Of a stretch of 15,931 bases of DNA, positions 1 to 15,931 are shown piece after piece. The position numbers and the translations under genes are program-made. The stretch covers positions 1-15,931 of the forward strand of contig JANOWZ010000417.1 in the NCBI GenBank assembly GCA_031418155.1. Reading direction: 5' to 3'. Position 1 is the first letter of the stretch; every line of letters starts with the position of its first letter. The notes beneath the pieces are model-generated. The model was not told where the DNA came from. It was given only the letters and a program-made list of their open reading frames with translations, and ran no database searches. Source of the DNA: Deinococcales bacterium (GTDB lineage: Bacteria > Deinococcota > Deinococci > Deinococcales > JAAFIG01).

Positions 1-86
1 AAACTCAAACGCTCCTCGGCGGCCAAATTGTCAATCGCTTCAAGGCTCGAGGCTGCGAGCGGTGGCATTGGCTTGGCGACGGTCAT
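1..86 (-). CDS. Partial CDS (N-terminus only; continues beyond window start). Hypothetical protein, probably the next gene of the gvp operon. Translation begins MTVAKPMPPLAASSLEAIDNLAAEERLS
   Basis: The minus-strand frame is open from an ATG at 86..84 to position 1. That ATG overlaps the TGA stop of the upstream GvpL/F gene (ATGA at 83..86). The same coupling pattern recurs at four other junctions in the window. Only 28 residues are visible, which is too little to assign a family. Confidence 0.35.
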   Translation of the reverse strand, partial: MTVAKPMPPLAASSLEAIDNLAAEERLS

Positions 87-868
87 ACGATCGCCTCGAG
101 TTTCGGTTCTGCATTGGCAAACGAATACGGCGCGAACGGACCAGACAATTCTGCACGCATCGCCAAACGATCCGGCCAACCGGCAAGCTCACCCAGCAAA
201 AGCGATTCAGAAATCGAATCCAACAACACCGCACACTCGAGCAAACCCGGATTCGCAGCCTGAGACGCAGGAATTCGCTCAAGCACTTTGATTTCCGTGA
301 CCGCATCCTCGAGCCTCGAGAACGCCTCGCGGCGCAAATCGGGAAGAACTTTTTTAACCTCAACCTCGAGCGCATCTTTCAATTTGCGTTTGAACAAATA
401 CTGACGGCCCGGCGTCGAACCGTTCAACTCGGCCTGCAAATCATCCAACTCAGGATTCGCCTCGATCAAACGTGGCTCGAGTTCGTCACGGTCCACCCAA
501 ACCCGCACCGTGAATTCACGCTGACCGTGCAAGGATTTCAAACGATCAATCATGATTTGCGATTCACGCTCGAGCAAAATGTTCAAGCTTTCTAAATCCG
601 GCACGACCGAACCGAAACGCAACGGAATCACACCAGCATCAATAAAACTCGAGATCGTGCGGTCATGCAAAATCGCTTTACCAGCCACCCAATTTGGATC
701 TTCAACATTCTCGGTCAAGAGTTTTGAGAAATCATCGGCGTTCACAGCCTCACAAATTGCGCCAAGTTTCGCGTAAGAATGAACCTCGATTTTTCCACCA
801 CAAACGCCCTCAAGATTTTCTTCTCGAGCATCGGGAACGGTGAACCCATAGACGTAAAAACCCGTCAT
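83..868 (-). CDS. gvpL: Gas vesicle protein, GvpL/GvpF family
   Basis: The translation (MTGFYVYGFTVPDAREENLEGV ... VHSYAKLGAICEAV ... VIPLRFGSVV) has the conserved N-terminal YVYG and downstream RFG pattern of GvpF/L proteins. The ORF track starts it at 886 (MGGGAIMTGFYVYG). The ATG at 868..866 overlaps the gvpG TGA stop (ATGA), so it is the more likely start. Confidence 0.8.
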   Translation of the reverse strand: MTGFYVYGFTVPDAREENLEGVCGGKIEVHSYAKLGAICEAVNADDFSKLLTENVEDPNWVAGKAILHDRTISSFIDAGVIPLRFGSVVPDLESLNILLERESQIMIDRLKSLHGQREFTVRVWVDRDELEPRLIEANPELDDLQAELNGSTPGRQYLFKRKLKDALEVEVKKVLPDLRREAFSRLEDAVTEIKVLERIPASQAANPGLLECAVLLDSISESLLLGELAGWPDRLAMRAELSGPFAPYSFANAEPKLEAIV

Positions 869-1182
869 GATCGCGCCGCCGCCCATTCCGCCTTACGCGC
901 CTCAATCACTTCAATCTGCTCGAGCAACTCCGCCTCGAGGTCCATGAATTCATCCTCGGTGATGCGCCCCGCATCCAAATCCGCACCGAGCGAGGTGAGT
1001 TTGTGGATCAACGGTTTTTCATCCAGCAAGGTTTCTTCGGCCTGATCCGCGATTTGTTCCGCCACCCACAAGATCGGCCCCAGAATCAAATTCAACGGGC
1101 CGAGCAATTCCATGCCCTCGGTGCCAGCGCGAGCCATCAGCGTGAACCTCTGGAAAATGACTGTCTGGCGAGGGCTTGCCAT
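865..1182 (-). CDS. gvpG: Gas vesicle protein G (GvpG)
   Basis: A roughly 100 aa protein with the GvpG-like pattern ELLGPLNLILGPILWVAEQIADQAEETLLDEKPLIHKLTSLGADLDAGRITEDEFMDLEAELLEQI. The ATG at 1182 sits at the centre of a perfect 20 bp palindrome. An alternative internal start (MELLGPL, about 1113) is possible. Confidence 0.65.
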   Translation of the reverse strand: MASPRQTVIFQRFTLMARAGTEGMELLGPLNLILGPILWVAEQIADQAEETLLDEKPLIHKLTSLGADLDAGRITEDEFMDLEAELLEQIEVIEARKAEWAAARS

Positions 1183-1216
1183 GGCAAGCCCCTACGTACA
1201 GGGCGCTCAAGAACCA

Positions 1217-2011
1217 TCATTCCTCGTCATCCTCCCAACGCACGGTCATTTCGGAAAACGTGAATGGGGGCAATGGGCCGGTCAAACGAATCGTTAACAG
1301 GTCGTGTTGGTCGTCGAATTCGTGCAGTGCGTTTTCGACTTTCTCGAGTTCTGCTTGCGGCATCAGCACGGACAGGTTGGCGACGACCCCTTCGGGCAGC
1401 GTTCCGTTGGAGATGCCTTCGACGAGTCCGTTCAGTCGTTTCTCGAGCGCGGCTCCGACGTAATCGCGGCGTTTGAGAATCGCGTTTTCCATCATTTGTC
1501 CGAGTCGAATTCTGGCGTGATGGTCGGCGCTGGTGGCGATCTTGTCGCGCAGACTCGAGATTTCTGGGTGCTCACTTAAAACACGTTCGATGACTTCGGC
1601 CGGGTCGGTCCAGGTGGCACGAACGCTGAGTTCGACACGACCATCGACGGCATCGAGTTTGGCTTTCAACTCGTCGGCTTTTTGCGTCAAGAGTTTGCGT
1701 TCGATCACCTCTAAACTCGGACCGATGGTGTTGAAGCGCACCGGCAGAACGGGCGTGATCGCCATGATGGTTTCGACAATCGTTTTGTGGGCCAGTAAAT
1801 TCTTGCGGGCGATGCTGTAACGGTCACTCGAGTTCGCACTGAGGACCACGATCAAATCGCCGACGCGCAAGAGGAATGGTTGACCGGAATTCTCAATCGG
1901 TTTTTGCTCGAGCACGTCCGGTAAATCTGGGTGATTGCGGGCGACGGCGTAGAGATAAAACGGTCCTTCAACGGTTGCCAAATCCGGTTTTACGAGCGTC
2001 GCTTGCGTCAT
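1217..2011 (-). CDS. gvpF: Gas vesicle protein, GvpF/GvpL family
   Basis: The translation (GPFYLYAVARNHPDL ... VLPVRFNTIGPS ...) has the GvpF/L hallmarks. The ATG at 2011 overlaps the stop of the upstream gene (ATGA at 2008..2011). Confidence 0.8.
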   Translation of the reverse strand: MTQATLVKPDLATVEGPFYLYAVARNHPDLPDVLEQKPIENSGQPFLLRVGDLIVVLSANSSDRYSIARKNLLAHKTIVETIMAITPVLPVRFNTIGPSLEVIERKLLTQKADELKAKLDAVDGRVELSVRATWTDPAEVIERVLSEHPEISSLRDKIATSADHHARIRLGQMMENAILKRRDYVGAALEKRLNGLVEGISNGTLPEGVVANLSVLMPQAELEKVENALHEFDDQHDLLTIRLTGPLPPFTFSEMTVRWEDDEE

Positions 2012-2952
2012 GCGTTCACCGCTTTCGTGACGCGCACTCCGAGGCCATGCGTGCTTGCGGCCAGCAAATCTCGGGCCCAGGCGAGGTCGCGCATTTCGTC
2101 CGCCGCATTCGGGTTGTTCGGGTTGCGGTCCGGGTGACGTTCGAGCGCCAGTTTCTTGAAGGTTCGTGCGAGCGTATCGCCATCCACATCGTTATCGAGT
2201 CCGAGCGTTTTGCGGGCGCGATCCAAATCCAACGTGTTCGGCGTGATGATCTCGAGGCTGGCGAAGGCGAAGGCGGGTCCGGGGGCACCGATGCGCCAAG
2301 TGATCCGATCCTCGAGTTTCGCATCCAATTCCGTGATCGCATTTTCCATCGCTTCGAGTTGATCGCGTTTGACAAGGAGCGCCAGGTTGAAGGCGCTGTC
2401 TTCGCCGTTGCGTCCAACATTACCAACCTCGAGCACGCTGTCTTTCAGGCATTGGATTGCGAGGTTCAGCAGCGTTTCGCGTTCGCGTTCAAGTTGAGTC
2501 CCGATCATCATTCCGATTCGCGCCTGATCCTCGGTCGTGACCGTGCCACGCTCGAGCAATTCTTGACGGAACGCGCCGACATCTTCTTGAATAGCGGCGC
2601 GTGCAATCTCATCCTGAACATTCCAACGGGCCGCCAGATTGATTTGCGCCGTGTCCTGGAGCCGAGCGAGTTCGGACAAGAGCGTGTCCTCGTGCAATTC
2701 GAGTAGTTCGATCACCCGCTCACGGTTGGGCAGGTTCGCACCGAGTTTGCAGGGCAAGATGCTCGAGGCATTGACGCTGTGAATCGCGGTTTGATGCTCG
2801 AGCAGAATTTGTGTGAGTTGTGCAGGATCGGATGGCAGATTGATGCGTCCCTCACCGATCAACGCGGCGAGCGGTCCAACCCGCACGACCTCGAGCCCTG
2901 GAGACTGAATTTCTGTGGCATCGGCGCTGTAAATTCCGTAAATCGTGGTCAT
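2008..2952 (-). CDS. GvpF/L-family gas vesicle protein fused to a C-terminal DnaJ J-domain
   Basis: The N-terminal roughly 240 aa are GvpF/L-like (MTTIYGIYSADATE ... HSVNASSILPCKLG). The C-terminal roughly 70 aa (TLGLDNDVDGDTLARTFKKLALERHPDRNPNNPNAADEMRDLAWARDLL) form a canonical J-domain with the HPD tripeptide. Confidence 0.75.
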   Translation of the reverse strand: MTTIYGIYSADATEIQSPGLEVVRVGPLAALIGEGRINLPSDPAQLTQILLEHQTAIHSVNASSILPCKLGANLPNRERVIELLELHEDTLLSELARLQDTAQINLAARWNVQDEIARAAIQEDVGAFRQELLERGTVTTEDQARIGMMIGTQLERERETLLNLAIQCLKDSVLEVGNVGRNGEDSAFNLALLVKRDQLEAMENAITELDAKLEDRITWRIGAPGPAFAFASLEIITPNTLDLDRARKTLGLDNDVDGDTLARTFKKLALERHPDRNPNNPNAADEMRDLAWARDLLAASTHGLGVRVTKAVNA

Positions 2953-2968
2953 TTTGGGTTCCTCCCCA

Positions 2969-5119
2969 TCATCGCTTGCTGGCTTTAACCTCCCCGAGTG
3001 CGTTCTCGAGGTCGGATTGTGTTATCTCGAGGCTAATGCTTTCGTTGTCACCAGTTTCTTTCGTTGAATTAGGTATCGAGGCCACAATTGCGTTCTTGGC
3101 GAGGTGAGCTTGCAAGACCAGCATTGCCGCGCGTCGCACCAACCATTCGAGGTCGGCACCGCTCCAACCCTCTGTCTTTGCGGCCAGGGCATCCAGATTA
3201 AGCTCGCCAGCCGTCGCACGACCCCTCAAATGCACACCGAGGATTTCTGCCCGGTCCGATTCACTTGGCAATTTGAACTCGAGCACCTGTTCAAAGCGCC
3301 CAGGACGCAGTAAAGCCGGATCGAGCGATTCGGGCCGATTCGTTGCGCCCAAAATGATCACGTTCCCAAGACTCGAGATGCCATCCATTTCGGCCAGGAA
3401 TTGACCAATCACCCGGCTCGAGACGGCATCCGCATCGGCACGGTTCGCCAACAATGCGTCGATCTCGTCGAAGAAGACCACGCACGGGGCGCTGGCTCGG
3501 GCCTTGCGGAAGAGTTCGCGCACGGCCTTCTCGGACTCGCCGTAGTACCTCGAGAGAAATTGAGCACCACGCACGGCGATGAAATTCGCCTCGGATTCTT
3601 TGGCGACAGCCCGTGCCGTCAACGTCTTGCCGGTTCCGGGAGGACCCGCCAGCAAGATTCCACGCGGAGGCTCGAGCCGGAGTTGCGCGAACAATTCAGG
3701 GTGCTTGAGGGGAGCCTCGACCGCCTCGATCAATGCGGCTTTGACCTCAGACAAACCACCGATCTCCGTCCAACTCGCACCGGCAATATCGGATTCGGTC
3801 TCGCGGATCAAACTCGGTGAAACCTCACGCAGGGCTGCACGGAAATCCTCCACGCCAACCTCGAGTTGCAACATTTCCTGCGCACTCGGACCTCGACCTG
3901 AGGCCGTCCACGTTGGCAACTGTGAACGGACGCGGTGCATTCCAGCCTCTCGAGCCAAGGCCGCCAAATCCGCACCGACAAAGCCGTGTGTGATTCGCGC
4001 CAAGTCATCCAAATTCACGTCCGGCATCAATGGCATCGCCCGCGTGTGAACCTCAAGGATTTCGCGCCTGCCTTTTGCATCCGGCGGATTGATGACCACT
4101 TCGCGGTCAAACCGTCCGGGCCGACGCAAGGCCGGATCGAGGTTGTCCGGCAGGTTGGTCGCACCGATCACCACGACCTGACCGCGCCCGCCGAGGCCAT
4201 CCATCAACGAGAGGAGTTGCGCAACGACACGCTTCTCGACCTCGCCCTGAACCTCAGAACGCTTCGGACCAATCGCGTCGATCTCGTCCAAGAAAATAAT
4301 GCTCGGGGCTTTCGCTCGAGCCTCCTGAAAAATTTCGCGCAAACGCTTTTCCGAATCCCCATAAAACTTGCCAATGATTTCCGGGCCAGCCACCGAAATG
4401 AAATGCGCCCGTGTCTCACGCGCCACGGCTCGAGCAATCGTGGTCTTGCCGGTTCCGGGCGGGCCGTACAACAACACCCCTTTCGGAGGATCGATTCCCA
4501 ACTGCTCGAACACCTGCGGATAACGCAATGGCAACTCGACCAACTCGCGGACTCGAGCAACCTCACGCGATAAACCGCCGATGTCCTCGTAGCTTGCGCT
4601 CGAAGAAGATTGGGCTGGAGCTTGCGCCTCGCCGGAATTCTCGAGCGCCAAACGCGACTCGCCTCCGACCAACGCATGCGATCCAGGCTCGATGGATTTC
4701 ACCCGCAACTCCAATACCTTCGAGCCGAACAACTCCACGCGAACCCGATCACCCGCCGTCAACGCACGGTCCTGCAACAACGTCTTCAAATCCGAGATTG
4801 CCACGCCCGCACCAGAAATCACCTCGAGCACCACGCTCCGTGCCAAGACCGGCTCGAGTCTTGCAACACGCACTTTCGCACCGATGCTCGAACCCGCATT
4901 TTCTCGGGCCAAACCATCCAGCAACACGCCACGATCACGGTCCTCGGGTCTGGACGGCAACGCACGAACCGCCGTGCTGCGCTCACCCGTGACGACAATC
5001 ACACCACCGGCACGCACGCCCAAACGCTCGAGGTCGGCAGGGGACAGGCGGGCGAGGCCACGGCCCGCATCACGCGGCGCGGCCTCGGCGACGACGATCT
5101 CGAGGGCATCGATTACCAT
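2969..5119 (-). CDS. CDC48/VAT/p97-like AAA+ ATPase (N-domain plus two AAA modules)
   Basis: A CDC48-type N-domain ([21 protein letters not shown]) is followed by two complete AAA cassettes. D1 has [16 protein letters not shown] and [23 protein letters not shown]2 has [18 protein letters not shown] and [21 protein letters not shown]. The ORF track begins at a TTG (5131). The first ATG is at 5119. Confidence 0.85.
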
Positions 5120-5233
5120 GTTGGGTTCCAATTGCGGTTCTGTCGTAGGGGCATCGTGTAATGCACGCTGTTGCGTGACGCATGCCTCGCCCCTACATTC
5201 GCGTTCGCCGAATCAACAACTTGCATCAAACCC

Positions 5234-5725
5234 TCAACCCGCGAACGGAACCATCAACTCGAGGATTCCGTTCTGATAAGACTTCGTGAATTCACCTTTG
5301 ACGGCTTTGGAAAGCTCGAGCGTCTTCGCGTACTTGCGTGCCGCTGCACCGTTCGCTTCAAGCTTCAAGGTTTGTCCCTCGAGCGTGACTTGAATGCTGC
5401 TTTCAACCGCGCCTGGAAGTTCGGCAATCACGCTGTAATGTCCGGTTTCCTCTAGCACGTCAACCATCGGTTCGCGCACGGGTTCGACGCTGGGGTTGCC
5501 ACCGTTGTTCGCCATGTTGCCGAATGTGGAGACGGTCGGTTCACCATTTAAGTTCGTGCGAATGTTGACCCCGATCACACCCTCGAGTCCAGATTTTGTC
5601 GTGAAATTCTGCGTGCCGCCTTCAGCGTTTCCCGCCTGTTTTTGCAATTCTTGAACGACCTCGAGAAGATTGTTGATACCGGAAAAAATTCCGCCAAGTC
5701 CGCTGTTGTCGTTGGTTTTCGCCAT
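5234..5725 (-). CDS. Hsp20/alpha-crystallin family small heat-shock protein (GvpH-like)
   Basis: The alpha-crystallin domain is recognisable: VDVLEETGHYSVIAELPGAVESSIQVTLEGQTLKLEA ... KSYQNGILELMVP. An AGGAGA ribosome-binding site lies about 9 nt upstream of the ATG. The N-terminal region is Gly/Asn-rich. Confidence 0.75.
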   Translation of the reverse strand: MAKTNDNSGLGGIFSGINNLLEVVQELQKQAGNAEGGTQNFTTKSGLEGVIGVNIRTNLNGEPTVSTFGNMANNGGNPSVEPVREPMVDVLEETGHYSVIAELPGAVESSIQVTLEGQTLKLEANGAAARKYAKTLELSKAVKGEFTKSYQNGILELMVPFAG

Positions 5726-5756
5726 TGTGTTGTCTCCTGTTTTGTTGGGGATGTTG

Positions 5757-5812
5757 TGCGAAAAGGGCGAACGTCATGTGATACATGCTGAGCATGCTGA
5801 GTTCGCCCCTAC
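5757..5812 (-). terminator. Terminator-like or attenuator hairpin between the small ORF and the hsp20-like gene
   Basis: On the minus-strand transcript an 8 bp GC-rich stem GGGCGAAC...GTTCGCCC encloses a loop containing the palindrome AGCATGCT and the tandem CATGCTGAG x2. It is followed directly by TTTTCGC. Confidence 0.35.
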
Positions 5813-5830
5813 GGATTCAAAATTCTGGGT

Positions 5831-6121
5831 TCAGTACTCGAGCACCATTGATCCGCCTGATCCCATCGACCCCCGCTTTGGTGCGACCCGAGGGGAAATC
5901 ACTTCGGTTTCGTTTTGCAATTCAATGATTCGCGCTTCAAGTTTCGCCAGCGTTTTTTCACCGTCACTCACGCGCTGCCGCCAGTCGGCCAATCCTCGCT
6001 CGAGGCGCTTGCGTTCGGCGGTGAGTTGGTAGATTTGCAGGTACGTGCGGCTTTCAGATTTGGGCAAGGCCGAACGTCGCAAGCTCGAGGGTGCCAAAGC
6101 AGTTTTGCGTGGGGTGGTCAT
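5831..6121 (-). CDS. Hypothetical small protein (96 aa, basic N-terminus, predicted coiled-coil), gvp-operon member of unknown family
   Basis: A strong AAGGAG ribosome-binding site sits 7 nt upstream of the ATG. Its position between gvpN and hsp20 is consistent with operon membership. No family is recognisable by eye. Confidence 0.55.
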   Translation of the reverse strand: MTTPRKTALAPSSLRRSALPKSESRTYLQIYQLTAERKRLERGLADWRQRVSDGEKTLAKLEARIIELQNETEVISPRVAPKRGSMGSGGSMVLEY

Positions 6122-6137
6122 TGGGGCTCCTTCGGAG

Positions 6138-6229
6138 AGAGGAAAGTAAAAGCAGAGAAAAGAGGAAAGTAAGTTCAGATCAAGGTTTTAGGCTGTTACT
6201 TTCCTCTTTTCTCTTTAATCTTTCCTCTT
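6138..6229 (-). terminator. Long hairpin (perfect 19 bp stem AGAGAAAAGAGGAAAGTAA / TTACTTTCCTCTTTTCTCT, about 23 nt loop) immediately downstream of gvpN; possible intrinsic terminator or attenuator
   Basis: The perfect inverted repeat lies at 6154..6172 and 6196..6214. The outer flanks extend it to about 35 bp imperfect. On the minus-strand transcript it is followed by GCUUUUACUUUCC. Confidence 0.45.
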
Positions 6230-6235
6230 GTTTTT

Positions 6236-7240
6236 TTACAACGTCATGGCGCGTGATGGTTTGCGTTCACCACCGGCAAGCACGGGCTCGCGGATCTCGA
6301 GGATTTCCGTGCGTTCTGCTGTACGCTCGAGTGGTTTGATGGTGCGGGCTTTCGGCAAGAGGTGCAGCATTTTGGCAACCGCTTGGCTCGAGACGGTATG
6401 GCGTTCGTGTTCGTCGCTGATGCTGCCGGTCAGGACATCCAAAACCACGCGCTCGAACTCAAGGTTTCCGGCGCTGACTTCAAGGTTGCGGACGCTGGCT
6501 ACTCGAGCGATTTGCAGTGCGGCGCGAACGCTGTGTTTGATTTTCAGTTTGCTTTCGCCACGCACGCTGGCGACCAGTTCGGTGATGGCGAGCGCATCTT
6601 CGAGTTGCAATCCTGATCGGGCGGCAACAATTCCGCCTTGCGTCTCGAGGTCGAATCCCTCTAAACGCATGGTCACTAGGCGATCACGCAAGGCTTCTTG
6701 CGCGAGGTGCACTCCGGCGTAATCTTCCGGGTTGCTGGTGAAAATCGCTCGGAAGTCCGGGTGAACTTTCATGTACCCGCCCTTGCCCGCCGCGCTCGGG
6801 TAGATCAAAATACCTTCCTCGAGCACCGGCAACAGGACGTTGTTCGCTTCGGCTTTGGAGCGTGTGAACTCGTCATAAACGAGCGTGTAACCGTTCTTGC
6901 AGGCAATCGTCAGTCGTTCATCGACCCAGGAATTGCTGGAATCTTCGTCCACTTTCAAAACGCTGTGGATGTAGTTGTCCACGACTTTGCGGCGGCGAAA
7001 TCCGTTGTTCGCGCCCAGCAAATTGCTGGAACCAAACTCGTTGTCACCGGCGATCAGCACCATCGGGCGGCCCAGTTTCGTGGCGACATGCAACGCGAGT
7101 GTGGTTTTTCCGGTGCCGCTCGCGCCTTCAAAGTTCACGCCGAGGCCAGCCTCGAGATATCCCAAAGCGCGTTTGGTCAGGTCTTTGACCTGCGCGGTTT
7201 CAACGAAATCTTCGCGCTGTTTGGTGCTGATTTGACTCAT
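6236..7240 (-). CDS. gvpN: Gas vesicle protein GvpN (MoxR-like AAA+ ATPase)
   Basis: FVETAQVKDLTKRALGYLEAGLGVNFEGASGTGKTTLALHVATKLGRPMVLIAGDNEF matches the conserved GvpN N-terminus and Walker A closely. Walker B VYDEFTRS is present. The ATG overlaps the upstream stop (ATGA at 7237..7240). Confidence 0.9.
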   Translation of the reverse strand: MSQISTKQREDFVETAQVKDLTKRALGYLEAGLGVNFEGASGTGKTTLALHVATKLGRPMVLIAGDNEFGSSNLLGANNGFRRRKVVDNYIHSVLKVDEDSSNSWVDERLTIACKNGYTLVYDEFTRSKAEANNVLLPVLEEGILIYPSAAGKGGYMKVHPDFRAIFTSNPEDYAGVHLAQEALRDRLVTMRLEGFDLETQGGIVAARSGLQLEDALAITELVASVRGESKLKIKHSVRAALQIARVASVRNLEVSAGNLEFERVVLDVLTGSISDEHERHTVSSQAVAKMLHLLPKARTIKPLERTAERTEILEIREPVLAGGERKPSRAMTL

Positions 7241-7983
7241 GCGCCACTCGAGACGTAACCGTTATCGGAAAGTTTGATTTTGCCGCTGGCGACAAGGCGT
7301 TTGAGCATCGTGGCAACTTCGCTTTGATCGAGTTTCAAGCCTTGTGCGAGGTCCTCGAGTGACAATCCTGGAACGCTCGAGATGGTGCGCAAGACGATGT
7401 GCTCGCGGCGTTTCTCGACTGGGTTCAGCACGGCAACGCCGACGGAAAGAGCGCCCTGCGGCATTGGTTTGGCGGCAGGCTTGCTGGCTGGACGGGCCGC
7501 ACGCACGACTGGTTTGACATCCGATCCGCGCATTTGACGGGCGAATCCCTCGAGTTGTTCACGCATGACCGCACGTGCGGTGGCGTGAGCCTCGAGCAAT
7601 TGACCTGTTTCGGCACTGAGCGTTTCGCGTTCACTGGCGCGTTTGCTGGCATCACGGCGGGCGCTCGAGATTCGTTTTGCACCTTGAGCGGCAAGTGTTT
7701 CTTGCACCGTGGCTTTGCGTTGGTTGTTTTCGTGTGCGCGATCAGTTGCGCGTTGAGCGCCCTGGGTGCTGCGAATCTCCGCGATAATCTCGAGCTTCGC
7801 ATGAACGGCTTGCGCTTGGGTTGCAACCTCGTTTGCACGGGCGATGTGTTCAACGGCGCGGATGGTACTTGCCGCCACGAATTCTTCGCGGCGTTCCTGA
7901 TCAAAATTCAGGCGGTCGCTGGCGGATTTGTTCAGTTTCTCGCGCAGTGCGGCTCCAGCCTGGTCATCTAATGTCATCGGCAT
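7237..7983 (-). CDS. Hypothetical coiled-coil protein with KPAAKP-type linker and C-terminal winged-helix-like domain; gene directly downstream of gvpA (possible GvpC-like structural or regulatory role)
   Basis: It is Ala/Glu/Arg/Gln-rich and predicted helical over roughly the first 150 aa. A VKPVVRAARPASKPAAKPMP linker follows. The C-terminus HIVLRTISSVPGLSLEDLAQGLKLDQSEVATMLKRLVASGKIKLSDNGYV resembles a winged-helix (LexA/ArsR-like) fold. The ribosome-binding site is AAAGGTGA. Confidence 0.55.
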   Translation of the reverse strand: MPMTLDDQAGAALREKLNKSASDRLNFDQERREEFVAASTIRAVEHIARANEVATQAQAVHAKLEIIAEIRSTQGAQRATDRAHENNQRKATVQETLAAQGAKRISSARRDASKRASERETLSAETGQLLEAHATARAVMREQLEGFARQMRGSDVKPVVRAARPASKPAAKPMPQGALSVGVAVLNPVEKRREHIVLRTISSVPGLSLEDLAQGLKLDQSEVATMLKRLVASGKIKLSDNGYVSSGA

Positions 7984-8087
7984 GATTTCACCTTTTTGGA
8001 TGTGTCATTGGGTACTGGATGGATACGGGATATGGTTATCGAATAGGGCTTGAACTCGAGGTTTGGGCGGTAGGTGAGGTGTTGAGG

Positions 8088-8118
8088 CTTTTACTTTCCT
8101 CTTTTCTCTTTCCTCTCG
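8088..8118 (-). repeat. Second copy of the purine-rich intergenic element (19-mer TTACTTTCCTCTTTTCTCT identical to 6196..6214) in the gvpA-downstream intergenic region
   Basis: There is an exact 19 nt match to the gvpN-downstream hairpin arm, with similar flanks (GGCTnTTACTTTCCTCTTTTCTCTTT..CCTCT). On the sense (minus) strand it reads GAGAGGAAAGAGAAAAGAGGAAAGTAAAAGCC. Confidence 0.6.
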
Positions 8119-8164
8119 CCCCCAAGCAATTCGGGCGGGCCGAGCGTGATGCCCGACCCACCCG

Positions 8165-8180
8165 CAAGACCTGTGTCTTG
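8165..8180 (-). terminator. Small hairpin CAAGACctgtGTCTTG 17 nt downstream of the gvpA stop, followed by a second GC-rich stem (CGGGC...GCCCG); possible partial terminator or attenuator after gvpA
   Basis: There is a perfect 6 bp inverted repeat with a 4 nt loop. No U-tract follows, so termination is uncertain. Confidence 0.25.
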
Positions 8181-8196
8181 GCCTGAATCTAAAAGA

Positions 8197-8415
8197 TCAG
8201 ACTGCTGGTGCGGCGACCGTCGAGGTCAAACCGATGGCTTCGGCGTACTTCAAGTACGTCTCGACCGATGCAGCAACGACGCGGGCTTCGATGGCGATCA
8301 ATTCGATGCCGACCAGTGAGACGCGGGCGAATGCGTCGATGACGATGCCTTTGTCCAGGATGCGGTCCACAACTTCGCCGAGGCTCGAGGAGTTCATGCT
8401 TTTTTCGACTGCCAT
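8197..8415 (-). CDS. gvpA: Gas vesicle structural protein GvpA
   Basis: [64 protein letters not shown] is a near-consensus GvpA (72 aa). The ATG at 8415 is preceded by a GGAGGT ribosome-binding site. The ORF-track entry 8197..8592 is an in-frame upstream extension with no support. Confidence 0.95.
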
Positions 8416-8840
8416 ATGTACCTCCGTAAAATTTGAATTCTTGGTTCTTGCCCAGGGATAAATGGGGCGATGTTGGGAAAAGAGGTTCAAGAATTCTTTT
8501 GGGTGTTTTTCCGGTTCTTGCCGGTGTGTGAATGGTGCACCCTCGAGCAAGGTTTGAGTAAGCCTCTTCTGGGTATTGGGTATACCCCCCATTTGGGTAT
8601 GCCCGTTTGGGGCTGGTCAAGTTGCGGTCTCGCGCCTACTTTGTTTGGACTCGGAACTGTGGCAAAACTTGTGTGATGCACAGTATTTGTGGGTTCCGCT
8701 ACAGTTTGGTGGTTTGAAAGAATTTTGCAAGAGATGGTTCGGCAAACTGAAGCTCTGGCAAGGGCGAAAAGTTGAACAGGGCTTCTACAAGTTCAGGCCG
8801 ATAAGTTCCAGGCCAGCAGCACAACGAAAGGGGGCGTGAG
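8416..8840. promoter_or_regulatory. About 425 bp divergent regulatory region between gvpA (-) and the acidic E2-like gene (+)
   Basis: It holds no convincing ORF. It contains the GGGTATACCC palindrome plus two more GGGTAT half-sites (about 8570..8606), direct repeats GGTTCTTGCC (8443..8452 and 8513..8522) each near GAATTCTT, and TTGAAC hexamers on both divergent sense strands. Confidence 0.5.
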
Positions 8841-10661
8841 TTGAGTACACGAGGATTCGGCGACACAGACTGGACCGACGGGTTTTCTCGACCGTGGGAT
8901 GTTTCCGTGGCATCATTTGAAGCCATCGAAACCGACCTGGACGAGTTGATCGACCCGGACGGGATCGAGTCTGCATTGGCCATCGACGATCAGGGGAATT
9001 TCCTCGCCTGGATGGATTCGGAACGCGGGATGGCTCCAGTGCCGCTCGCGGCTTCAGAGTTCGAGGCTCCGGTGGCGCAAGATTTGAACGCGCCAGCGGC
9101 GAAAGTGTCTAAGGGTTTCAAACGGTTCACGCCGCCAGTTCCGGTGGTTGAGCCCAGCGAACCGACGACCTATCAGGCCAGCAGCGAGGCGATTGATGCG
9201 GTGTTTGCCGAACTCGAGGCGAGCGCCAAAGCCAGCACAGAACAGTCAGATGCACCCGAGGTTGAGGCGCAGGCAGATGTTCAGGTTCAGGCCGATTCGG
9301 ACATTTATGCTGAGGTCCATTCTGAAGATCAAGACGATCAGGGTGCGGTTGAAGCAAAGGCCAAGAAGCCAAAAATTGATCCGATGGCGCTCGAGGATGC
9401 GTTCGAGAGTGTGCCGTTTGACCTTCCAGAGTTGATGGGCGAACAGTCTGGCACTGTACTCAGTGAGCAACCTGTCGCGCTCGAGGGTGAAGCGGAGGCG
9501 GTCGAAGCTCAGGCAGAAGTTGAACTCCCAGCAGTTGAAGCTCAGGCAGAAGTGGTCGAGGTTGAAGTTCCAGCAATCGAAGCTCAGGTTGAAGTTGTTG
9601 AGGCCGAAGCAATTGTCATTCCCGAGGGCGAACCGGTCGAACCCGTCGCCGCCTGGAAGAAGCCCGTCAAACCCAAAAAGCAACCCAGCGAATTTGGCAT
9701 CGACGAAGTTCCACTCGAAGCGCTGCTCGAGATTGCGAATACCGAGGCCGAAGACGAAGAGAATCATGCCGAGGCCGAAGCCGTCACGATTGACCTGCAA
9801 CCCGAGGCGGATGCGCTTGCCGCAGTTGGCTTGGGCGAAGCAAGCCTTCAGGAAGGCATCATGGCCGCTTACGAGATGGAGGGTGCGCCAATCACCGATT
9901 TGAGCGCATTGATCGAGAGCAGCAAAGCACTCGAGGTTTCAACCGCCCGTGAAGCGGTCAACGAACCGGTCGCCACACCCGTTCATGCCGGATTTGTTGC
10001 TACTGCTGAAAGCAATGAATCGCCAGAGGCCGTGCTCCAGGCGCTCGAGACCAGCGTGCTCGGATTTGAAACACCAGAGATTCAACCGCTCGATGCAGAA
10101 CTCGAAACGGATTCCAGCGTCGCGGCAGTGCTGGCCCCAGAAATCATGAATGTCCCGATGATGCCCGCGACGACCACGTTGCGCCGTCACTTCGACGCGA
10201 CCGACCTGATCGAAGCGCAGATTCGTTTGCGTCACGCACTGCGCCCATTGGACGTTTCGATGGTCTCGCTCTTGGGTCGCGCCGCCGAACGTTGCGCCCT
10301 CGAGTTGCCGGGAATCAAAACGATTGCACTCGCCGAACTCGGCGACAATGGGATTGCAGTCACCGCCAAGATCAAAGCCGTCGAAAGCTTCCGCGAGATG
10401 CTTGCGGGCATCAGCGAGGGCTCGAGCGGCGTTCGTGGCGACCTGAGCGTCGTTGACATCAGCGACCTCGGCTTGGATGAAGTGGTCTTGCCACTCGCCG
10501 GACCGCACCTCTTGCTGACCCGTCTTTCGCCACACCCGGACAAACCGGGTCGCATGCGCGGCACGGTCTCTCTCTCTGGCCTCGTGAACCTTCGCGCTGG
10601 CGCATCATTCCTCGATCAGGTCGTCTCGAAACTCGAGGCTCCGATCACGCTGATGGTCTGA
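8841..10661 (+). CDS. Acidic tandem-repeat protein with a C-terminal 2-oxoacid dehydrogenase E2 acyltransferase (CAT-like) catalytic-domain homologue lacking the catalytic His/Asp
   Basis: A TTG start is preceded by an AAAGGGGG ribosome-binding site. The N-terminal roughly 430 aa are highly acidic and low-complexity with EAQAEV-type repeats. The C-terminal roughly 170 aa align to the E2 catalytic domain: RRHFDATDLIEAQIRLRH against HFDKTDITELEAFRK, VVDISDLGLDEV against FTISSIGGLG, and TVSLSGLVNLRAGASFLDQVVSKLEAP against ISLSFDHRVIDGADGARFI. In that alignment DHR is replaced by LVN. Confidence 0.7.
   Translation: MSTRGFGDTDWTDGFSRPWDVSVASFEAIETDLDELIDPDGIESALAIDDQGNFLAWMDSERGMAPVPLAASEFEAPVAQDLNAPAAKVSKGFKRFTPPVPVVEPSEPTTYQASSEAIDAVFAELEASAKASTEQSDAPEVEAQADVQVQADSDIYAEVHSEDQDDQGAVEAKAKKPKIDPMALEDAFESVPFDLPELMGEQSGTVLSEQPVALEGEAEAVEAQAEVELPAVEAQAEVVEVEVPAIEAQVEVVEAEAIVIPEGEPVEPVAAWKKPVKPKKQPSEFGIDEVPLEALLEIANTEAEDEENHAEAEAVTIDLQPEADALAAVGLGEASLQEGIMAAYEMEGAPITDLSALIESSKALEVSTAREAVNEPVATPVHAGFVATAESNESPEAVLQALETSVLGFETPEIQPLDAELETDSSVAAVLAPEIMNVPMMPATTTLRRHFDATDLIEAQIRLRHALRPLDVSMVSLLGRAAERCALELPGIKTIALAELGDNGIAVTAKIKAVESFREMLAGISEGSSGVRGDLSVVDISDLGLDEVVLPLAGPHLLLTRLSPHPDKPGRMRGTVSLSGLVNLRAGASFLDQVVSKLEAPITLMV
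9500..9620 (+). repeat. Imperfect tandem DNA repeat (about 3 units of 33 to 42 nt, core GAAGCTCAGGCAGAAGT) encoding VEAQAEV(V/E) repeats
   Basis: GAAGCTCAGG(C/T)(A/T)GAAGT recurs at about 9506, 9540 and 9582. Confidence 0.6.
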
Positions 10662-10689
10662 TGATGACGAACTTTCATCAATTCTCGGC

Positions 10690-10758
10690 TGTGCTAGACG
10701 CGAACAAGAATTTCTCGAGCAATATTTTAAAAATTATCATGCAGTGGAAAGGAAACAT
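10690..10758 (+). promoter_or_regulatory. AT-rich segment (TTTCTCGAGCAATATTTTAAAAATTATCATG) upstream of the HD-GYP gene; candidate promoter
   Basis: The local AT-richness is unusual in a window of roughly 58% GC. It lies directly upstream of the GGAAAGGAAA ribosome-binding site and the ATG at 10759. No exact -35/-10 assignment is made. Confidence 0.3.
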
Positions 10759-11403
10759 ATGAGTGATCTCTTCAGAGACGGTTTCATTGACGAGATCGTT
10801 GATGCCTACGTCAAGGACTTCGGCGACCGCGTGGAAAACACCGACCGCTTCGAGCACTACTCCCCAGGACATGCCCGTCGTGTAGCCGAAACCAGCGTCG
10901 CCATCTGCGAAGGTTTGGATTTCGAGGAAGAAGACATTCGCGTCGTCAAAACCGCCGGGTTGCTCCACGACATCGGCGAGGTCATTCAAAAGCACGCCTT
11001 CTACGGCGCACCTCGAGTCTTGACCCCAGAAGAAACCGTTGAGATGTGGCAACACAGCCTGATCGGTGAACGCGAAGTGGCACGTCGCGGTTTTGGACGC
11101 AAAGAACAGTTGCTGGTGCGTTGGCATCACGAACGCTGGAACGGTCAGGGCTACCCGGACATGCTGTTCGGACCCGACTTGCCGCTCGGTGCTCGCATCA
11201 TCCGTTTGGCGGACACCTGGGATGCGCTGACAAACGACCGTCCGTGGCGTTTGGCGATGTCTGAAGCCGATGCGCTCGAGGAGATCAAACTCGGTGCAGG
11301 CATGGAGTTCGATCCAGAACTCGTCGGCTTGTTCCTCGAGTTGCACCAATGCGGAGCCTTGATCCCAAGTGAAAACTTCGCCATCTCAGGAGGCAAACGA
11401 TGA
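10759..11403 (+). CDS. HD-GYP domain protein (stand-alone cyclic-di-nucleotide phosphodiesterase-like)
   Basis: The HD motif (LLHDIGEV) and the HD-GYP signature WHHERWNGQGYPD are both present. The start is assigned to the ATG at 10759, 5 nt after the GGAAAGGAAA ribosome-binding site. The ORF track begins at a GTG at 10744. Confidence 0.8.
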   Translation: MSDLFRDGFIDEIVDAYVKDFGDRVENTDRFEHYSPGHARRVAETSVAICEGLDFEEEDIRVVKTAGLLHDIGEVIQKHAFYGAPRVLTPEETVEMWQHSLIGEREVARRGFGRKEQLLVRWHHERWNGQGYPDMLFGPDLPLGARIIRLADTWDALTNDRPWRLAMSEADALEEIKLGAGMEFDPELVGLFLELHQCGALIPSENFAISGGKR

Positions 11404-12338
11404 GTGGCGTCAAAGAATACGTCGGCGCAGAAGTCATGCTGCTCTCAAAAGTCCTCAAGCTCGAGAGTGTCGCCGTACCCTTCGGTGGACGCAACCCAAT
11501 GTGGCTCGGCTGGTGGATGAAGACTTTGGGCAAGAGCGTGCACATGAACGACCTGTTGCACTTTTCATACATGGACTCGGTCGGCCTGATCGAAAACGAA
11601 GGCTTCTTGTTGGACGGCGACACCCTCGGCGAACTGACCAAAGACATCGGCGACGGCAAGCAACTGACCAACCCAGAACTCGCCCGTCTCGTCCCAATGC
11701 AAGACGCATACTTCTTTGATCAACTTCGTCCACGCATCGAAAAACTGCCAGCCCGTCAAAAAGGTATCGCCATTCGAGCCGGATACAACACCATGCGATA
11801 CGCCCAAGTCATGGACTCCTCGAGATTCGTGAACCTGCGCGTCTCCCTCGACAAAGTCTTCGCCCGTGAAGTCGAAGAGATCAACAAGCGCATCACCTCG
11901 AGCGGCAAAGGCCAAGCGTACATGGAAGAGGCCGGAAGCTTCGTCGGCAACGTTCGCGCCAGCGCCCTGTACATGCAACTGCCAAGCATGGGCGGCTTCA
12001 GCACCGAATACGCTGCGGGCGCACGTCCACGCGGACCACTCGGACGCGAAATCTGGGCACGCGGCCCAAGCAAAACCTGGATGCCAGAACTGAAGGCCGC
12101 CACCAAAGGCACCTTCGGCGACCGCTTCACCTCACGCGAAGCGTACTTCAAAATGGTCTCGGAATTCCTCGAGAAAGCCAACGATTACCCAGTCTGGGTG
12201 TTCAACCTCGAAGAAAGCGAATACCCCGATGTCCTGCGTGCCGTGATGCAGTTCCGTAAGCCAAAAGCCGTGCATCGTTTTGACACACGCGAAGCGAGCG
12301 GCGGGTACATGAGCTACTTCTTGATCGCAGAGAAATAA
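11400..12338 (+). CDS. Dam-like (D12-class N6-adenine methyltransferase fold) protein with a non-canonical motif IV (MQLPS in place of DPPY); translationally coupled to the HD-GYP gene
   Basis: An ATGA overlap with the HD-GYP stop spans 11400..11403. Residue patterns parallel E. coli Dam: KEYVGAEVMLLSKVL against KWAGGKYPLLDDI, VPFGGR against PFVGAG, HMNDLLHFSYM against ADINSDLISLY, and RAGYNTMRYA against NRYGYNGLCRYN. The position expected for DPPY reads YMQLPSMGG. No [DNS]PP[YFW] occurs anywhere in the protein. Confidence 0.5.
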   Translation: MSGVKEYVGAEVMLLSKVLKLESVAVPFGGRNPMWLGWWMKTLGKSVHMNDLLHFSYMDSVGLIENEGFLLDGDTLGELTKDIGDGKQLTNPELARLVPMQDAYFFDQLRPRIEKLPARQKGIAIRAGYNTMRYAQVMDSSRFVNLRVSLDKVFAREVEEINKRITSSGKGQAYMEEAGSFVGNVRASALYMQLPSMGGFSTEYAAGARPRGPLGREIWARGPSKTWMPELKAATKGTFGDRFTSREAYFKMVSEFLEKANDYPVWVFNLEESEYPDVLRAVMQFRKPKAVHRFDTREASGGYMSYFLIAEK

Positions 12339-12365
12339 GCTCGAGAATTTAACAAGCTGAATCAT

Positions 12366-12399
12366 TTCCCGCTCGAGGTTTGGGCGGGGAATTTTGTTG
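12366..12399 (+). terminator. Putative rho-independent terminator after the Dam-like gene
   Basis: The stem TTCCCGC..GCGGGGAA with loop TCGAGGTTTGG is followed by AATTTTGTT. Confidence 0.4.
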
Positions 12400-12509
12400 G
12401 TCTCAAGGCGGTAAGCCATTGAACGCATTGCCGTAGATGCCCGCGCTGAATATGCTTTCCCGAATGATTCAACCCACACTGATTCGGAAATCTGTCTCGA
12501 GCCTCGGGG

Positions 12510-14291
12510 ATGTTTGTGCCCGTAGATAGAGTGCCCGCTCCGGCGAATGGATTTTTCGGAACTCGAAGCAGAACATTTTTTTCGTATTACAAACCTTATC
12601 GGCGCTTGCTCTATACCGACCTGGCTTGCGCATTCGTTGTCTCGGCGATCACCCTGATCCTGCCATTGTGCGCAAGTTACGTCACCAAGAACGTGCTCGA
12701 GGGAAATCATCCCGATGCGCTCGGGCAAATTTTACTGGTGGGTGCTTTGATGCTGGCGCTGGTTATGGCTTACACGTTTTGCAACACCTTCGTTTCTTAC
12801 CAAGGTCACATGATGGGAACCCTGATGGAAGCAGACATGCGCCGCGACCTGTTTGCGCAGTACCAAACGTTATCGTTTGGTTTTTACGATGGGCAACGAA
12901 CGGGACAGTTGATGTCGCGCCTGACCAACGACCTTTACAACATCGGTGAGTTTGCGCACCACGGCCCAGAAGACCTCGCCATTGCCGTGGTGAAATTCGC
13001 CGGGGTCTTCGCCATTCTCTTGAGTGTGAATGTCCAGTTGACTGCGGTGGTGTTCTTGCTTTTCCCAGTGATGCTGCTCTGGGCATTGTATTTTAATCGC
13101 AAAATGAATCAGGCGCTGCGAGCCATGCGGCAACGCATCGGCGATGTCAATGCACAGGTGGAGGACACGCTTGCAGGGATTCGCGTGGCGCAGTCGTTCA
13201 GCAACGAACAGCAGGAACAAGCAAAGTTTGACCTTCAGAACCACCGTTTCGTTGAAAGTATGCGTGAAGGTCACAAAAGCGAGGCGTACTTCTCGAGTGG
13301 CATAACGGCTTTCAGTCAACTCTTGACGGTGGTGATCGTGGTTTTTGGTGGCCTTGCCATCGCCAATGTTTCGTTGGGTTTGCCAGATTTGGTGACATAC
13401 CTGCTGTACGTTGCCGTTCTGGTCGATCCGATTCAGCGGTTCGTGAATTTTGCCAGGGTCTTTCAGGAGGGCAGCACTGGTTTTGAGCGCTTCATGGAAA
13501 TCATGGAACTCGAGCCAGAGATTCAAGATGCCGACAACACGAGAGAACTCACTCAGGTTAGAGGGCAGGTACAATTTCAGGCGGTCAGTTTCAAATACGC
13601 CGAGGATTCTGAGAATGTGCTCGAGCAGCTTTCCTTGGACATCAAGGCTGGCGAGTTCGTCGCGCTGGTTGGGCCTTCTGGTGTTGGCAAGACCACACTC
13701 TGTTCGTTGATTCCACGGTTTTACGACGTGACTGAGGGACAAATTCTGCTCGATGGTCAGGACATCAAAGGCATTGCGTTGCAATCGCTCAGGCGGCAGA
13801 TCGGCGTGGTTCAGCAAGATGTCTACCTATTCGCCGGGACCGTCTTGGAAAATATTCGCTACGGTAAGCTCGAGGCCAGTCTGGAAGAGGTCATGGAGGC
13901 GGCCAAAAAAGCCAACGCCCACGGTTTCATCATGGCGCTGCCGAACGGATACGACACCGATGTTGGGCAGCGCGGCGTAAAACTTTCGGGCGGACAGAAG
14001 CAACGCCTGAGCATCGCTCGAGTCTTTTTGAAGAATCCACCGATCATCATTTTTGACGAGGCGACAAGCGCCCTGGACAACGAGAGCGAAAAGGCGATCC
14101 AGGATTCCCTCGAGACCCTGAGCAACAACCGCACCACCCTGGTCATCGCGCACCGGTTGTGCACTGTGCGAAACGCGCAACGAATCCTGGTCCTGACCGA
14201 TGGCGGCATTGCTGAACAGGGCACACACGCGGAACTGATCGCGGCGGGTGGGACGTATGCGAATTTGTACAACACGCGACTCAGCATGTAA
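12510..14291 (+). CDS. ABC transporter, fused permease/ATP-binding protein (MsbA/exporter type)
   Basis: The N-terminal transmembrane region begins YYKPYRRLLYTDLACAFVVSAITLILP. The C-terminal NBD carries Walker A GPSGVGKTT, signature LSGGQKQRLSIAR, Walker B IIIFDEATSALD and H-loop IAHRL. A GTG at 12516 is an alternative start with better ribosome-binding-site spacing. Confidence 0.9.
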   Translation: MFVPVDRVPAPANGFFGTRSRTFFSYYKPYRRLLYTDLACAFVVSAITLILPLCASYVTKNVLEGNHPDALGQILLVGALMLALVMAYTFCNTFVSYQGHMMGTLMEADMRRDLFAQYQTLSFGFYDGQRTGQLMSRLTNDLYNIGEFAHHGPEDLAIAVVKFAGVFAILLSVNVQLTAVVFLLFPVMLLWALYFNRKMNQALRAMRQRIGDVNAQVEDTLAGIRVAQSFSNEQQEQAKFDLQNHRFVESMREGHKSEAYFSSGITAFSQLLTVVIVVFGGLAIANVSLGLPDLVTYLLYVAVLVDPIQRFVNFARVFQEGSTGFERFMEIMELEPEIQDADNTRELTQVRGQVQFQAVSFKYAEDSENVLEQLSLDIKAGEFVALVGPSGVGKTTLCSLIPRFYDVTEGQILLDGQDIKGIALQSLRRQIGVVQQDVYLFAGTVLENIRYGKLEASLEEVMEAAKKANAHGFIMALPNGYDTDVGQRGVKLSGGQKQRLSIARVFLKNPPIIIFDEATSALDNESEKAIQDSLETLSNNRTTLVIAHRLCTVRNAQRILVLTDGGIAEQGTHAELIAAGGTYANLYNTRLSM

Positions 14292-14430
14292 GGCTCGAGC
14301 CCTGTACGACGCGGGGCGTTTCAAATCGTCCGGCTGACTGATTTCGATGGCCCGGAGCGGGCAGTGCCGATTGTGCAATGATGCTGCAAGATGTTGTCCC
14401 AAGCTGAACCGCTGGGAGAGAGGCACAATC

Positions 14431-15732: not shown

Positions 15733-15742
15733 AGCTCGAGAA

Positions 15743-15931
15743 TTACCGTGCGGCTCGAGGATCAAGCGCGTCACGCAACGCATCACCAATCAAATTGAAT
15801 GACAGCACCGAAATCAGAATCGCCATTGCAGGCGCACTCGAGGCCCAGGGTGCGTTTGAAATGTAATTGCGGGTCAGGCTGACGGTTGCGCCCCATTCGG
15901 GAATCGGTGGTTGCGCCCCGAAGCCGATGAA
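15743..15931 (-). CDS. Partial CDS (C-terminus only): ABC transporter permease of the OppC/DppC/NikC family
   Basis: The minus-strand translation is ...QPPIPEWGATVSLTRNYISNAPWASSAPAMAILISVLSFNLIGDALRDALDPRAAR*. This is the characteristic C-terminal signature of BPD-type oligopeptide permeases (FNLLGDGLRDALDPR). The stop TAA lies at 15745..15743. The gene is convergent with the THUMP gene across a 10 nt gap. It is absent from the ORF track because it has no in-window start. Confidence 0.8.
   Translation of the reverse strand, partial: FIGFGAQPPIPEWGATVSLTRNYISNAPWASSAPAMAILISVLSFNLIGDALRDALDPRAAR

Follow-up and report, generated by a model that had tools for sequence, protein, structure and literature searches.

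A very stable hairpin in a Deinococcales gas-vesicle operon probably belongs to a dispersed, rapidly evolving family of heptanucleotide repeats

The gas-vesicle (gvp) operon of a Deinococcales bacterium, carried on a 15,931-nucleotide stretch of DNA (assembly GCA_031418155.1, contig JANOWZ010000417.1, positions 1-15,931, hereafter referred to as the window), contains purine-rich repeats in the gaps downstream of gvpA and gvpN, with an inverted pair after gvpN (positions 6138-6229) predicted to form a long hairpin. We consider it likely that this element belongs to a heterogeneous family of heptanucleotide tandem repeats, dispersed and fast-evolving, with the unit G-NNN-AAA, of which it is a local example. 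A functional effect, in which the stem-loop would act as a decay barrier and/or partial terminator or pause on gvp mRNA, is advanced only tentatively; the reading as a whole, repeat family and stem-loop effect together, is the one that we favor on balance. The element shows every testable feature of intergenic heterogeneous heptamer repeats, within which the G-NNN-AAA arrays constitute a new sequence family, and this family lacks both conservation and specificity for gvp loci.

Exact copies of the 19-mer TTACTTTCCTCTTTTCTCT lie on the plus strand at 6196-6214 and 8091-8109, and its exact reverse complement is found at 6154-6172, as the initial annotation had read from the sequence. Allowing up to three mismatches still returns just these three matches in the window (none expected by chance, 0/200 shuffles). 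The inverted pair creates the perfect 19-bp hairpin that had been proposed directly 3' of gvpN, its 19-nt arms being 100 % complementary and spaced by 23 nt; structure prediction for the entire stem-loop, outer partial copies included (6137-6229), gives -44.4 kcal/mol (z -6.87), with none of 200 shuffles equally stable. The 12-mer core of the 19-mer has a fourth copy at 6138-6149 on the minus strand, a degenerate block of heptad units at 6215-6229 makes a fifth, and long purine/pyrimidine runs in the window are confined to the post-gvpA and post-gvpN gaps. The gvp genes all lie on the minus strand, and the features of the two gaps and the open reading frames (ORFs) around them are as follows, in sense-strand order.

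8197..8415, minus strand: gvpA (72 aa; NF006874 at 126.8 bits against a cutoff of 100; Pfam Gas_vesicle).
8080..8119, minus strand: full extent of the similarity of the post-gvpA copy to the post-gvpN 5' arm (6187-6231), including the non-repeat flank AGCCT.
8088..8115, minus strand: post-gvpA singlet array, GAGGAAA GAGAAAA GAGGAAA GTAAAAG, separated from the gvpA stop by 81 nt and from the ORF248 start by 104 nt.
7237..7983, minus strand: ORF248, between gvpA and gvpN (248 aa; C-terminal MarR-like winged helix, PF12802 at 27.2 bits, borderline against a cutoff of 27; no NCBIfam match).
6236..7240, minus strand: gvpN (334 aa; TIGR02640 at 312.6 bits against a cutoff of 266.8).
6137..6229, minus strand: whole stem-loop (allele A, see below), filling the gvpN-ORF96 gap; identical in the close strain L001.
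6193..6227, minus strand: post-gvpN 5' purine arm, GAGGAAA GATTAAA GAGAAAA GAGGAAA GTAACAG, beginning 8 nt past the gvpN stop (regular-expression match at 6200-6227).
6173..6192, minus strand: loop CCTAAAACCTTGATCTGAAC (20 nt), whose first bases with 6193-6194 make up AGCCTAAA, common to the flank of the post-gvpA copy.
6154..6172, minus strand: 3' pyrimidine arm, TTACTTTCCTCTTTTCTCT on the sense strand, the perfect complement of 6196-6214.
6137..6149, minus strand: outer 3' arm, a partial copy TTACTTTCCTCTC that pairs with GAGGAAAGA at ~6219-6228 and lengthens the stem.
6127..6133, minus strand: ORF96 Shine-Dalgarno sequence GAAGGAG, separated by 3 nt from the 3' end of the hairpin and by 5 nt from the ATG (6119-6121); AAGGAG is kept in all alleles.
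5831..6121, minus strand: ORF96, a conserved gene downstream of the hairpin (no Pfam or NCBIfam match; the 96-aa gene is called in L001, L003, L004, L109, L110 and L125).

Read on the sense strand, the post-gvpN gap runs from the TAA stop through AAAAACAA, five heptads, the loop, TTACTTTCCTCTTTTCTCT, GCTT, TTACTTTCCTCTC, TCC, GAAGGAG and CCCCA to the ORF96 ATG; in the post-gvpA gap, three hairpins come first and the heptad array follows them, without a complementary arm. The gene names gvpA and gvpN hold, as does the location of the copies in two gaps inside a gvp operon on the minus strand, with the refinement that the 248-aa ORF lies between the two genes. Downstream of ORF96 the operon continues with an Hsp20-like ORF, a CDC48-type AAA+ ATPase, GvpF/L paralogues and GvpG.

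What had been described as three copies of an element of about 30 nt does consist of repeats, but not of a single 30-mer: Tandem Repeats Finder (TRF) resolves a period of 7 at both sites (4.4 copies at 6199-6229, 3.3 copies at 8094-8116), and further partial copies surround them. Head-to-tail 7-nt units in at least three copies are recovered both by TRF and by regular-expression search, the unit being G-NNN-AAA, with GAGGAAA, GAGAAAA and GTAAAA as the local heptads. In 24 heptads drawn from five arrays, the first position is invariably G (2.0 bits), A nearly always occupies positions 5-6 (1.5 and 1.3 bits), and positions 2-4 are variable (0.3-0.9 bits). Similar flanks around the copies had also been noted, and the sense-strand similarity between the post-gvpA (8119..8080) and post-gvpN (6231..6187) sites indeed extends over ~40 nt with 21 exact bases (a repeat-pair search across the two sites returns a direct match of 35 nt at 89 % identity), taking in the non-repeat flank GTAA-N-AGCCT. 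The main difference is one additional heptad, the post-gvpN array being the post-gvpA array plus one GATTAAA unit.

Evidence on how such arrays evolve comes from close strains, taken here as independent metagenome contigs recovered by exact look-up of the window GvpN and its >90 % identical cluster members. L001 differs from the window by 27 single-nucleotide polymorphisms (SNPs) in 11.2 kb, and its gvpN-ORF96 gap is identical. L002 and L003 match the window at 99.6-99.7 % in both flanks, yet they have a different sequence between the gvpN stop and the ORF96 start (BLAST breakpoints at 6235 and 6121), and flank identity among strains with differing gap alleles is 99.6-99.8 % overall. One species complex contains six alleles of this gap, whose breakpoints coincide exactly with the stop and start codons.

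Allele A (window, L001): GAGGAAA GATTAAA GAGAAAA GAGGAAA GTAACAG; perfect arm; -44.4 kcal/mol, z -6.9.
Allele B (L002, L003, L124): GTGAAAA GTGGAAG GTGGAAA GTTCAAA GTAAACC; 3' arm CTTTCAACTTTCCACC; -22.4 kcal/mol, z -1.7.
Allele C (L004): allele B minus one GTGGAAG heptad; -19.4 kcal/mol, z -2.4.
Allele D (L110): GAAGAAA GTTGAAA GTGCAAA GTTCAAA GTAAATC; 3' arm CTTTTCA CTTTCAA CTTTGCA CTTTCCA; -25.8 kcal/mol, z -4.8.
Allele E (L109): GTGGAAA GTTAGAC GCGCAAA GTTCAAA GTAAACC; no arm and no hairpin; -11.6 kcal/mol, z +0.83.
Allele F (L125, L126): GTGAAAA GTTCAAA GTGAAAA GTTCAAA GCAACCC; weak arm; -13 kcal/mol.

Alleles A-F all keep the heptad register and the AAGGAG motif but vary in heptad content, in heptad number and in the complementary arm. 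Sequences differ among alleles A, B, C and D, each of which nevertheless retains complementarity between its arms. Copy number changes by a whole unit between close strains, as the step from B to C demonstrates. The window, L001, L002, L004 and L122 share a 100 % identical post-gvpA array, and its identity in strains with alleles A, B or C indicates that it predates allele A. It is missing in L109, L110 and L125, members of the same species complex that all keep the GC hairpin upstream of it; L110 and L125 carry a GC hairpin GGGCGAGGCAAGCCTCGCCCCTAC in its place, and L109 another sequence. Three independent assemblies break exactly at the gvpN-ORF96 gap (an N-run in L122 at 4007-4100, contig ends in L123 and L124), which would be expected if alleles co-occur in one sample; the breaks are consistent with co-occurring alleles or with a hairpin-related failure of assembly.

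Outside the gvp locus, the exact 19-mer is found in 24 stretches of a species-representative genome collection. Its matches in low-GC organisms look like chance, and in GC-rich metagenome-assembled genomes (MAGs) it sits inside an extended array: in Deinococcales (L005, L016), Acidiferrobacterales (L011), Gammaproteobacteria (L022) and Schlesneria (L009), and seven times in a MAG labelled Saccharibacteria (L010, L019, L026-L028). The extended array reads GCA GAGGAAA GAGAAAA ... GTAAAA and is usually followed by the complementary pyrimidine arm. Its neighbors in these genomes are unrelated to one another (ahcY-metF, GGDEF-MFS, ftsW, cysS, a class-I tRNA synthetase, an aminotransferase, a type II secretion system F protein and a GH1 glycosidase), and the heptamer arrays are intergenic, occur at many loci and lie beside unrelated genes; two Deinococcales MAG contigs hold five arrays in 6 kb. 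The arrays begin 2-9 nt past a stop codon, mostly between co-directional genes, and convergent inverted pairs are frequent, as in Xanthomonas. In all seven inverted pairs detected by regular expression, and in that of the window (8/8), the purine arm comes first. Because this polarity is the same on both DNA strands, a transcript in either direction would carry a purine 5' arm and a U/C-rich 3' arm.

Syntenic gvp clusters with 67-75 % GvpN identity (L111-L119) contain no array in 79 kb, and in L116 gvpN overlaps the next ORF, leaving no gap. A background set of metagenome contigs with GvpN at 50-57 % identity (436 kb) holds three arrays only, of a different GTCCAAA type. Array density per 100 kb is 16 in the species set of the window, 13 in the loci selected for the 19-mer, 0.7 in the unrelated gvpN loci and 0 in the syntenic relatives. 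The check that the initial annotation had called for, dispersed family or gvp-specific element, accordingly comes out as a dispersed family.

A contig of the same lineage (L120, GCA_965190885.1) has no G-NNN-AAA arrays and carries instead heptad hairpins built from GGTCAGA units, one of which (-33.5 kcal/mol, z -4.4) is followed by UUUU; heptad hairpins with changing units are thus a trait of the lineage.

Three observations made along the way concern these sequence sets. The GTCCAAA/GTCCAAG arrays of the distant gvpN loci (L076 1079-1099, L080 1105-1125, L088 21-55) also fit G-NNN-AAA. The MAG labelled Saccharibacteria (SRP173033_co2_258) has 56-62 % GC, and its label may need checking; with 13 GAGAAAA/GAGGAAA arrays in ~38 kb and long perfect hairpins down to -82 kcal/mol, it would be the best genome for a census of the array family. 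In L120, nearly every gap has one or two REP-like (repetitive extragenic palindromic) palindromes of the form GAACACCGTC-N-GACGGTGTTC, absent from the window (example gaps: 1338-1406, 8968-9152, 20676-20788 and 21539-21642).

The closest precedent is provided by the heterogeneous heptamers of Xanthomonas, (GGGAATC)n/(GGGANTN)n, and of Nostoc, GGGGA(C/T)T, mostly of four units, which are 89-93 % intergenic, lie a mean of 28 nt from the upstream ORF, include 70-75 inverted pairs in convergent orientation and seldom lie between divergent genes; their length and sequence vary between close relatives, and their neighbors belong to all functional classes (Rehm et al, 2015, PMC4692102). The present arrays share with these the 7-nt unit with fixed and free positions, the ~4 units, the intergenic location near the end of the upstream ORF, the two convergent opposite-strand arrays able to form stem-loops, and the wide variation between relatives. 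They differ in their A-rich unit, in their Deinococcota-like host and in a vocabulary of units that recurs in several phyla; as they are without G-tracts, G-quadruplex formation is not applicable to them. TAACTGA heptamers of marine Beggiatoaceae, Cyanobacteria and Bacteroidetes are intergenic, in 2-6 copies, and of scattered phylogeny with no evident transfer mechanism (MacGregor, 2015, PMC4679880). Those arrays resemble ours in being abundant and intergenic, in their scattered distribution and in having neighbors of all functions, but they are almost always direct (one indirect set in 170) and lie just upstream of start codons (PMC4679880), whereas the present ones start just past stop codons and are often hairpin-paired. 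As quoted in that paper, heptamers are the commonest long unit of simple sequence repeats in most genomes examined, for which polymerase slippage was proposed (Mrazek, 2007, via PMC4679880).

A literal literature search for GAGGAAAGAGAAAAG found no paper. In the cyanobacterium Calothrix PCC 7601, tandem heptanucleotides known as short tandemly repeated repetitive (STRR) sequences, which Rehm et al also cite, occupy intergenic regions of operons; going by their description, these and the present arrays are both intergenic tandem heptanucleotides, with different units and in different phyla. Against Rfam 15, with all families considered at E <= 1, only eukaryotic microRNA-precursor models were returned, at 25-34 bits against gathering thresholds of 70-211, and these sub-threshold matches are generic hairpin similarity.

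We therefore favor a reading in which G-NNN-AAA arrays occupy intergenic gaps, singly or as an array with its inverted complement, the purine arm always first. Such arrays change by gain and loss of whole heptads, as seen among the gap alleles, and copying from one site to another appears to contribute as well: allele A may have taken its 5' arm from the older post-gvpA array or from another member of the family, and the shared non-repeat flank points to the post-gvpA array. The perfect 19-bp stem would most plausibly have arisen by templated correction of one arm against the other. The resulting stem-loop fills the gap between gvpN and ORF96, stops 3 nt short of the ORF96 Shine-Dalgarno sequence, and may act as a barrier to 3'-to-5' decay and/or as a partial terminator or pause, favoring gvpA-ORF248-gvpN over the downstream genes; this putative effect would be dispensable.

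Several points weigh against this reading. Intercistronic stabilizer hairpins and bidirectional intrinsic terminators place a stable stem-loop right after a stop codon, and the present one resembles them in lying past the stop and in a purine-first order that gives a U/C-rich 3' arm on either strand. It is unlike canonical terminators in its stem of ~40 % GC, its 23-nt loop and its tail GCUUUUACUUUCC, which has neither a canonical nor any discrete U-tract, and a consensus terminator scan of the minus strand between 5000 and 9500 returned no site. (A consensus promoter scan on the sense strand of both gaps likewise found none.) The hairpin-free allele E (z +0.83) and the absence of a gap in L116 mean that any function is dispensable and may be nil; any role of the array at the RNA level is one that we infer. 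The host lineage was sampled over ~30 kb of unique sequence, which limits the scope for copy number. Finally, neutral slippage alone predicts neither a conserved G1 and A5-7 with variable positions 2-4, nor a constant polarity with near-identical arrays of 33-35 nt across phyla.

Among the alternatives, a miniature mobile element of the REPIN (REP doublet forming a hairpin) or MITE (miniature inverted-repeat transposable element) type survives best, and we regard it as unlikely. Under this explanation the doublet (6154-6214) is a mobile hairpin and the singlet (8091-8109) a decayed or immobile copy, with a transposase acting in trans and occasional spread between phyla. REP and REPIN elements are reportedly (Bertels and Rainey are said to have described them so in 2011) made up of inverted doublets that form long hairpins, together with singlets, and REPs can stabilize upstream mRNA segments. 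The doublet and singlet of the window reproduce that picture, intergenic and dispersed; copies lie beside unrelated genes in several phyla, their presence varies between close strains at both sites, and REP-like palindromes in other gaps of the window and in L120 indicate that such elements live in the lineage. Against this, there is no empty-site allele: all gap alleles are homologous heptad arrays in the same register, the replaced segment reaches from stop codon to start codon without a target-site duplication, and alleles differ by whole heptads and by substitutions within heptads. The 19-mer, moreover, is a polypurine tract with heptad periodicity, without an internal palindrome or the GTAG head of REPs, and the window contains no transposase or RAYT (REP-associated tyrosine transposase) gene. 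A scan of viral contigs for the 19-mer gave a single match, in a phage of 28-31 % GC, judged to be chance.

The conserved heptad positions, the polarity and the recurrence across phyla leave a small probability of a real and general function. Here GCA-(GAGRAAA)n-GTAAAA would be a cross-phylum functional module and more than slippage debris, either a platform with 7-nt periodicity that a conserved factor recognizes or a strand-symmetric terminator or processing hairpin of a new kind, which would explain G1/A5-7, the 8/8 polarity, the placement 2-9 nt past stops and the near-identical arrays of 33-35 nt in Deinococcota, Proteobacteria and other phyla; we rate this slightly below the mobile element. 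A more specific proposal, made by analogy and rated lower again as improbable, is that the arrays form a periodic binding platform for an oligomeric protein, HutP- or TRAP-like on RNA or omega-like on DNA, whose binding to the purine arm would prevent the hairpin and switch termination or translation. HutP, with its UAG-N4 repeats, and TRAP read NAG triplets spaced regularly along the 5' arm of a terminator hairpin, and the omega repressor reads contiguous 7-bp heptads in direct and inverted order. The strict 7-nt register with its invariant G1, conserved A5-7 and variable positions 2-4 would suit such a protein, as would the constant polarity and the near-identical arrays in unrelated phyla, but no candidate partner gene is conserved beside the arrays, whose neighbors are unrelated housekeeping genes; heptads change between strains that are 99.7 % identical, one allele lacks the arm, and the close gvp relatives have no arrays.

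The initial annotation had itself leaned toward control of the gvp operon: a gvp-specific, Shine-Dalgarno-like element to which ribosomes, a polypurine-binding protein or a small RNA might bind, setting expression of gvpA against that of the downstream genes. Both copies do sit in intra-operon gaps, after gvpA and after gvpN, the heptads contain GAGG cores, and the hairpin is very stable. This account is nevertheless very improbable and is not borne out by the distribution of the arrays: the gap has six alleles, the post-gvpA copy is missing in L109, L110 and L125, L111-L119 have no arrays, and the element occurs mostly outside gvp loci, beside unrelated genes. Nor is there a start codon at Shine-Dalgarno distance past the GAGG motifs. 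The structure that is conserved after gvpA is a different one, given here as a single feature.

8132..8164, minus strand: GC-rich 14-bp hairpin, third of three after gvpA, followed by GAAUUGCUU; outside the repeat family; kept in L002, L004, L109, L110 and L125.

At the position of this hairpin, L112 has a classical terminator hairpin with a T8 run, and we consider the 8132-8164 hairpin a better candidate for a gvpA-specific attenuator or terminator than the heptad array. A chance low-complexity match or an assembly artefact, for which one could cite the low-complexity sequence, the chance-like matches in some low-GC genomes and the instability of assemblies at the site, has a negligible probability given the 0/200 shuffles, the occurrence of allele A in two assemblies differing by 27 SNPs and of allele B in two others, and the restriction of the window's long purine/pyrimidine runs to the two gaps.

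A few further candidates were discarded. A diversity-generating retroelement as the source of variation was set aside by reasoning, since it is the adenines at positions 5-7 that are conserved and the window has no reverse transcriptase; A-tract DNA bending was dropped likewise, because a 7-bp period does not stay in phase with the helix. A second repeat family in the window, based on GTAGGGGCG, was not significant (5 matches against 2 expected, 13/200 shuffles as good). A small ORF overlapping the post-gvpA array (8019-8186, plus strand; 55 aa in L002/L003) was rejected as spurious because this segment is replaced in L109 and L110.

Several observations on the rest of the locus stand apart from the repeat family. 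Gaps 5132-5233 and 5726-5830 (minus strand) contain hairpins on GTAGGGGCG...CGCCCCTAC-like arms, a motif that in L110/L125 sits exactly at the position of the window's post-gvpA array. Accessory genes of an unusual kind lie in the gvp cluster between 2008 and 5725 (minus strand): a CDC48-type AAA+ ATPase with two domains (720 aa), a GvpF/L-DnaJ J-domain fusion (314 aa) and the Hsp20-like ORF163, a set conserved in L109-L119. Divergent from gvpA lies an ORF at 8841-10661 (plus strand, 606 aa) with no Pfam or NCBIfam match and internal repeats of 33-42 nt at 9483-9599, whose called length in relatives is 584, 724, 466, 409 and 370 aa. For the window's ABC transporter the closest named protein is from a Thermaceae MAG (73 %), and exact protein look-up of the window GvpL found no match on record. 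The palindrome CTCGAG occurs 108 times in the window (15.9 kb) against ~3.9 expected; of the 97 copies within genes, 67 read in frame as CTC-GAG (Leu-Glu), and a further 11 copies are intergenic. It reaches 4-7 per kb in all syntenic relatives, in L120 and in the two Deinococcales MAG contigs, with at most 1 per kb in the other loci, and this excess resembles a lineage-wide highly iterated palindrome. Together with the ABC transporter match, it makes a Deinococcota host likely. A search of the literature on CTCGAG over-representation in Deinococcus found nothing relevant.

For annotation of the locus, these results mean that the striking hairpin after gvpN is not to be taken for a conserved element of gas-vesicle control; where over-expression of gvpA is concerned, the conserved GC hairpin after gvpA is the feature of interest. 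The purine-first polarity and the position-specific conservation of the heptads are concrete, checkable regularities that go beyond a pure slippage model. At the intercistronic gvpN-ORF96 gap, near-identical strains provide a naturally occurring allelic series, with six versions that extend from a perfect hairpin of -44 kcal/mol to none, and this comes close to a ready-made experiment on the effect of intergenic heptamer arrays on operon expression.

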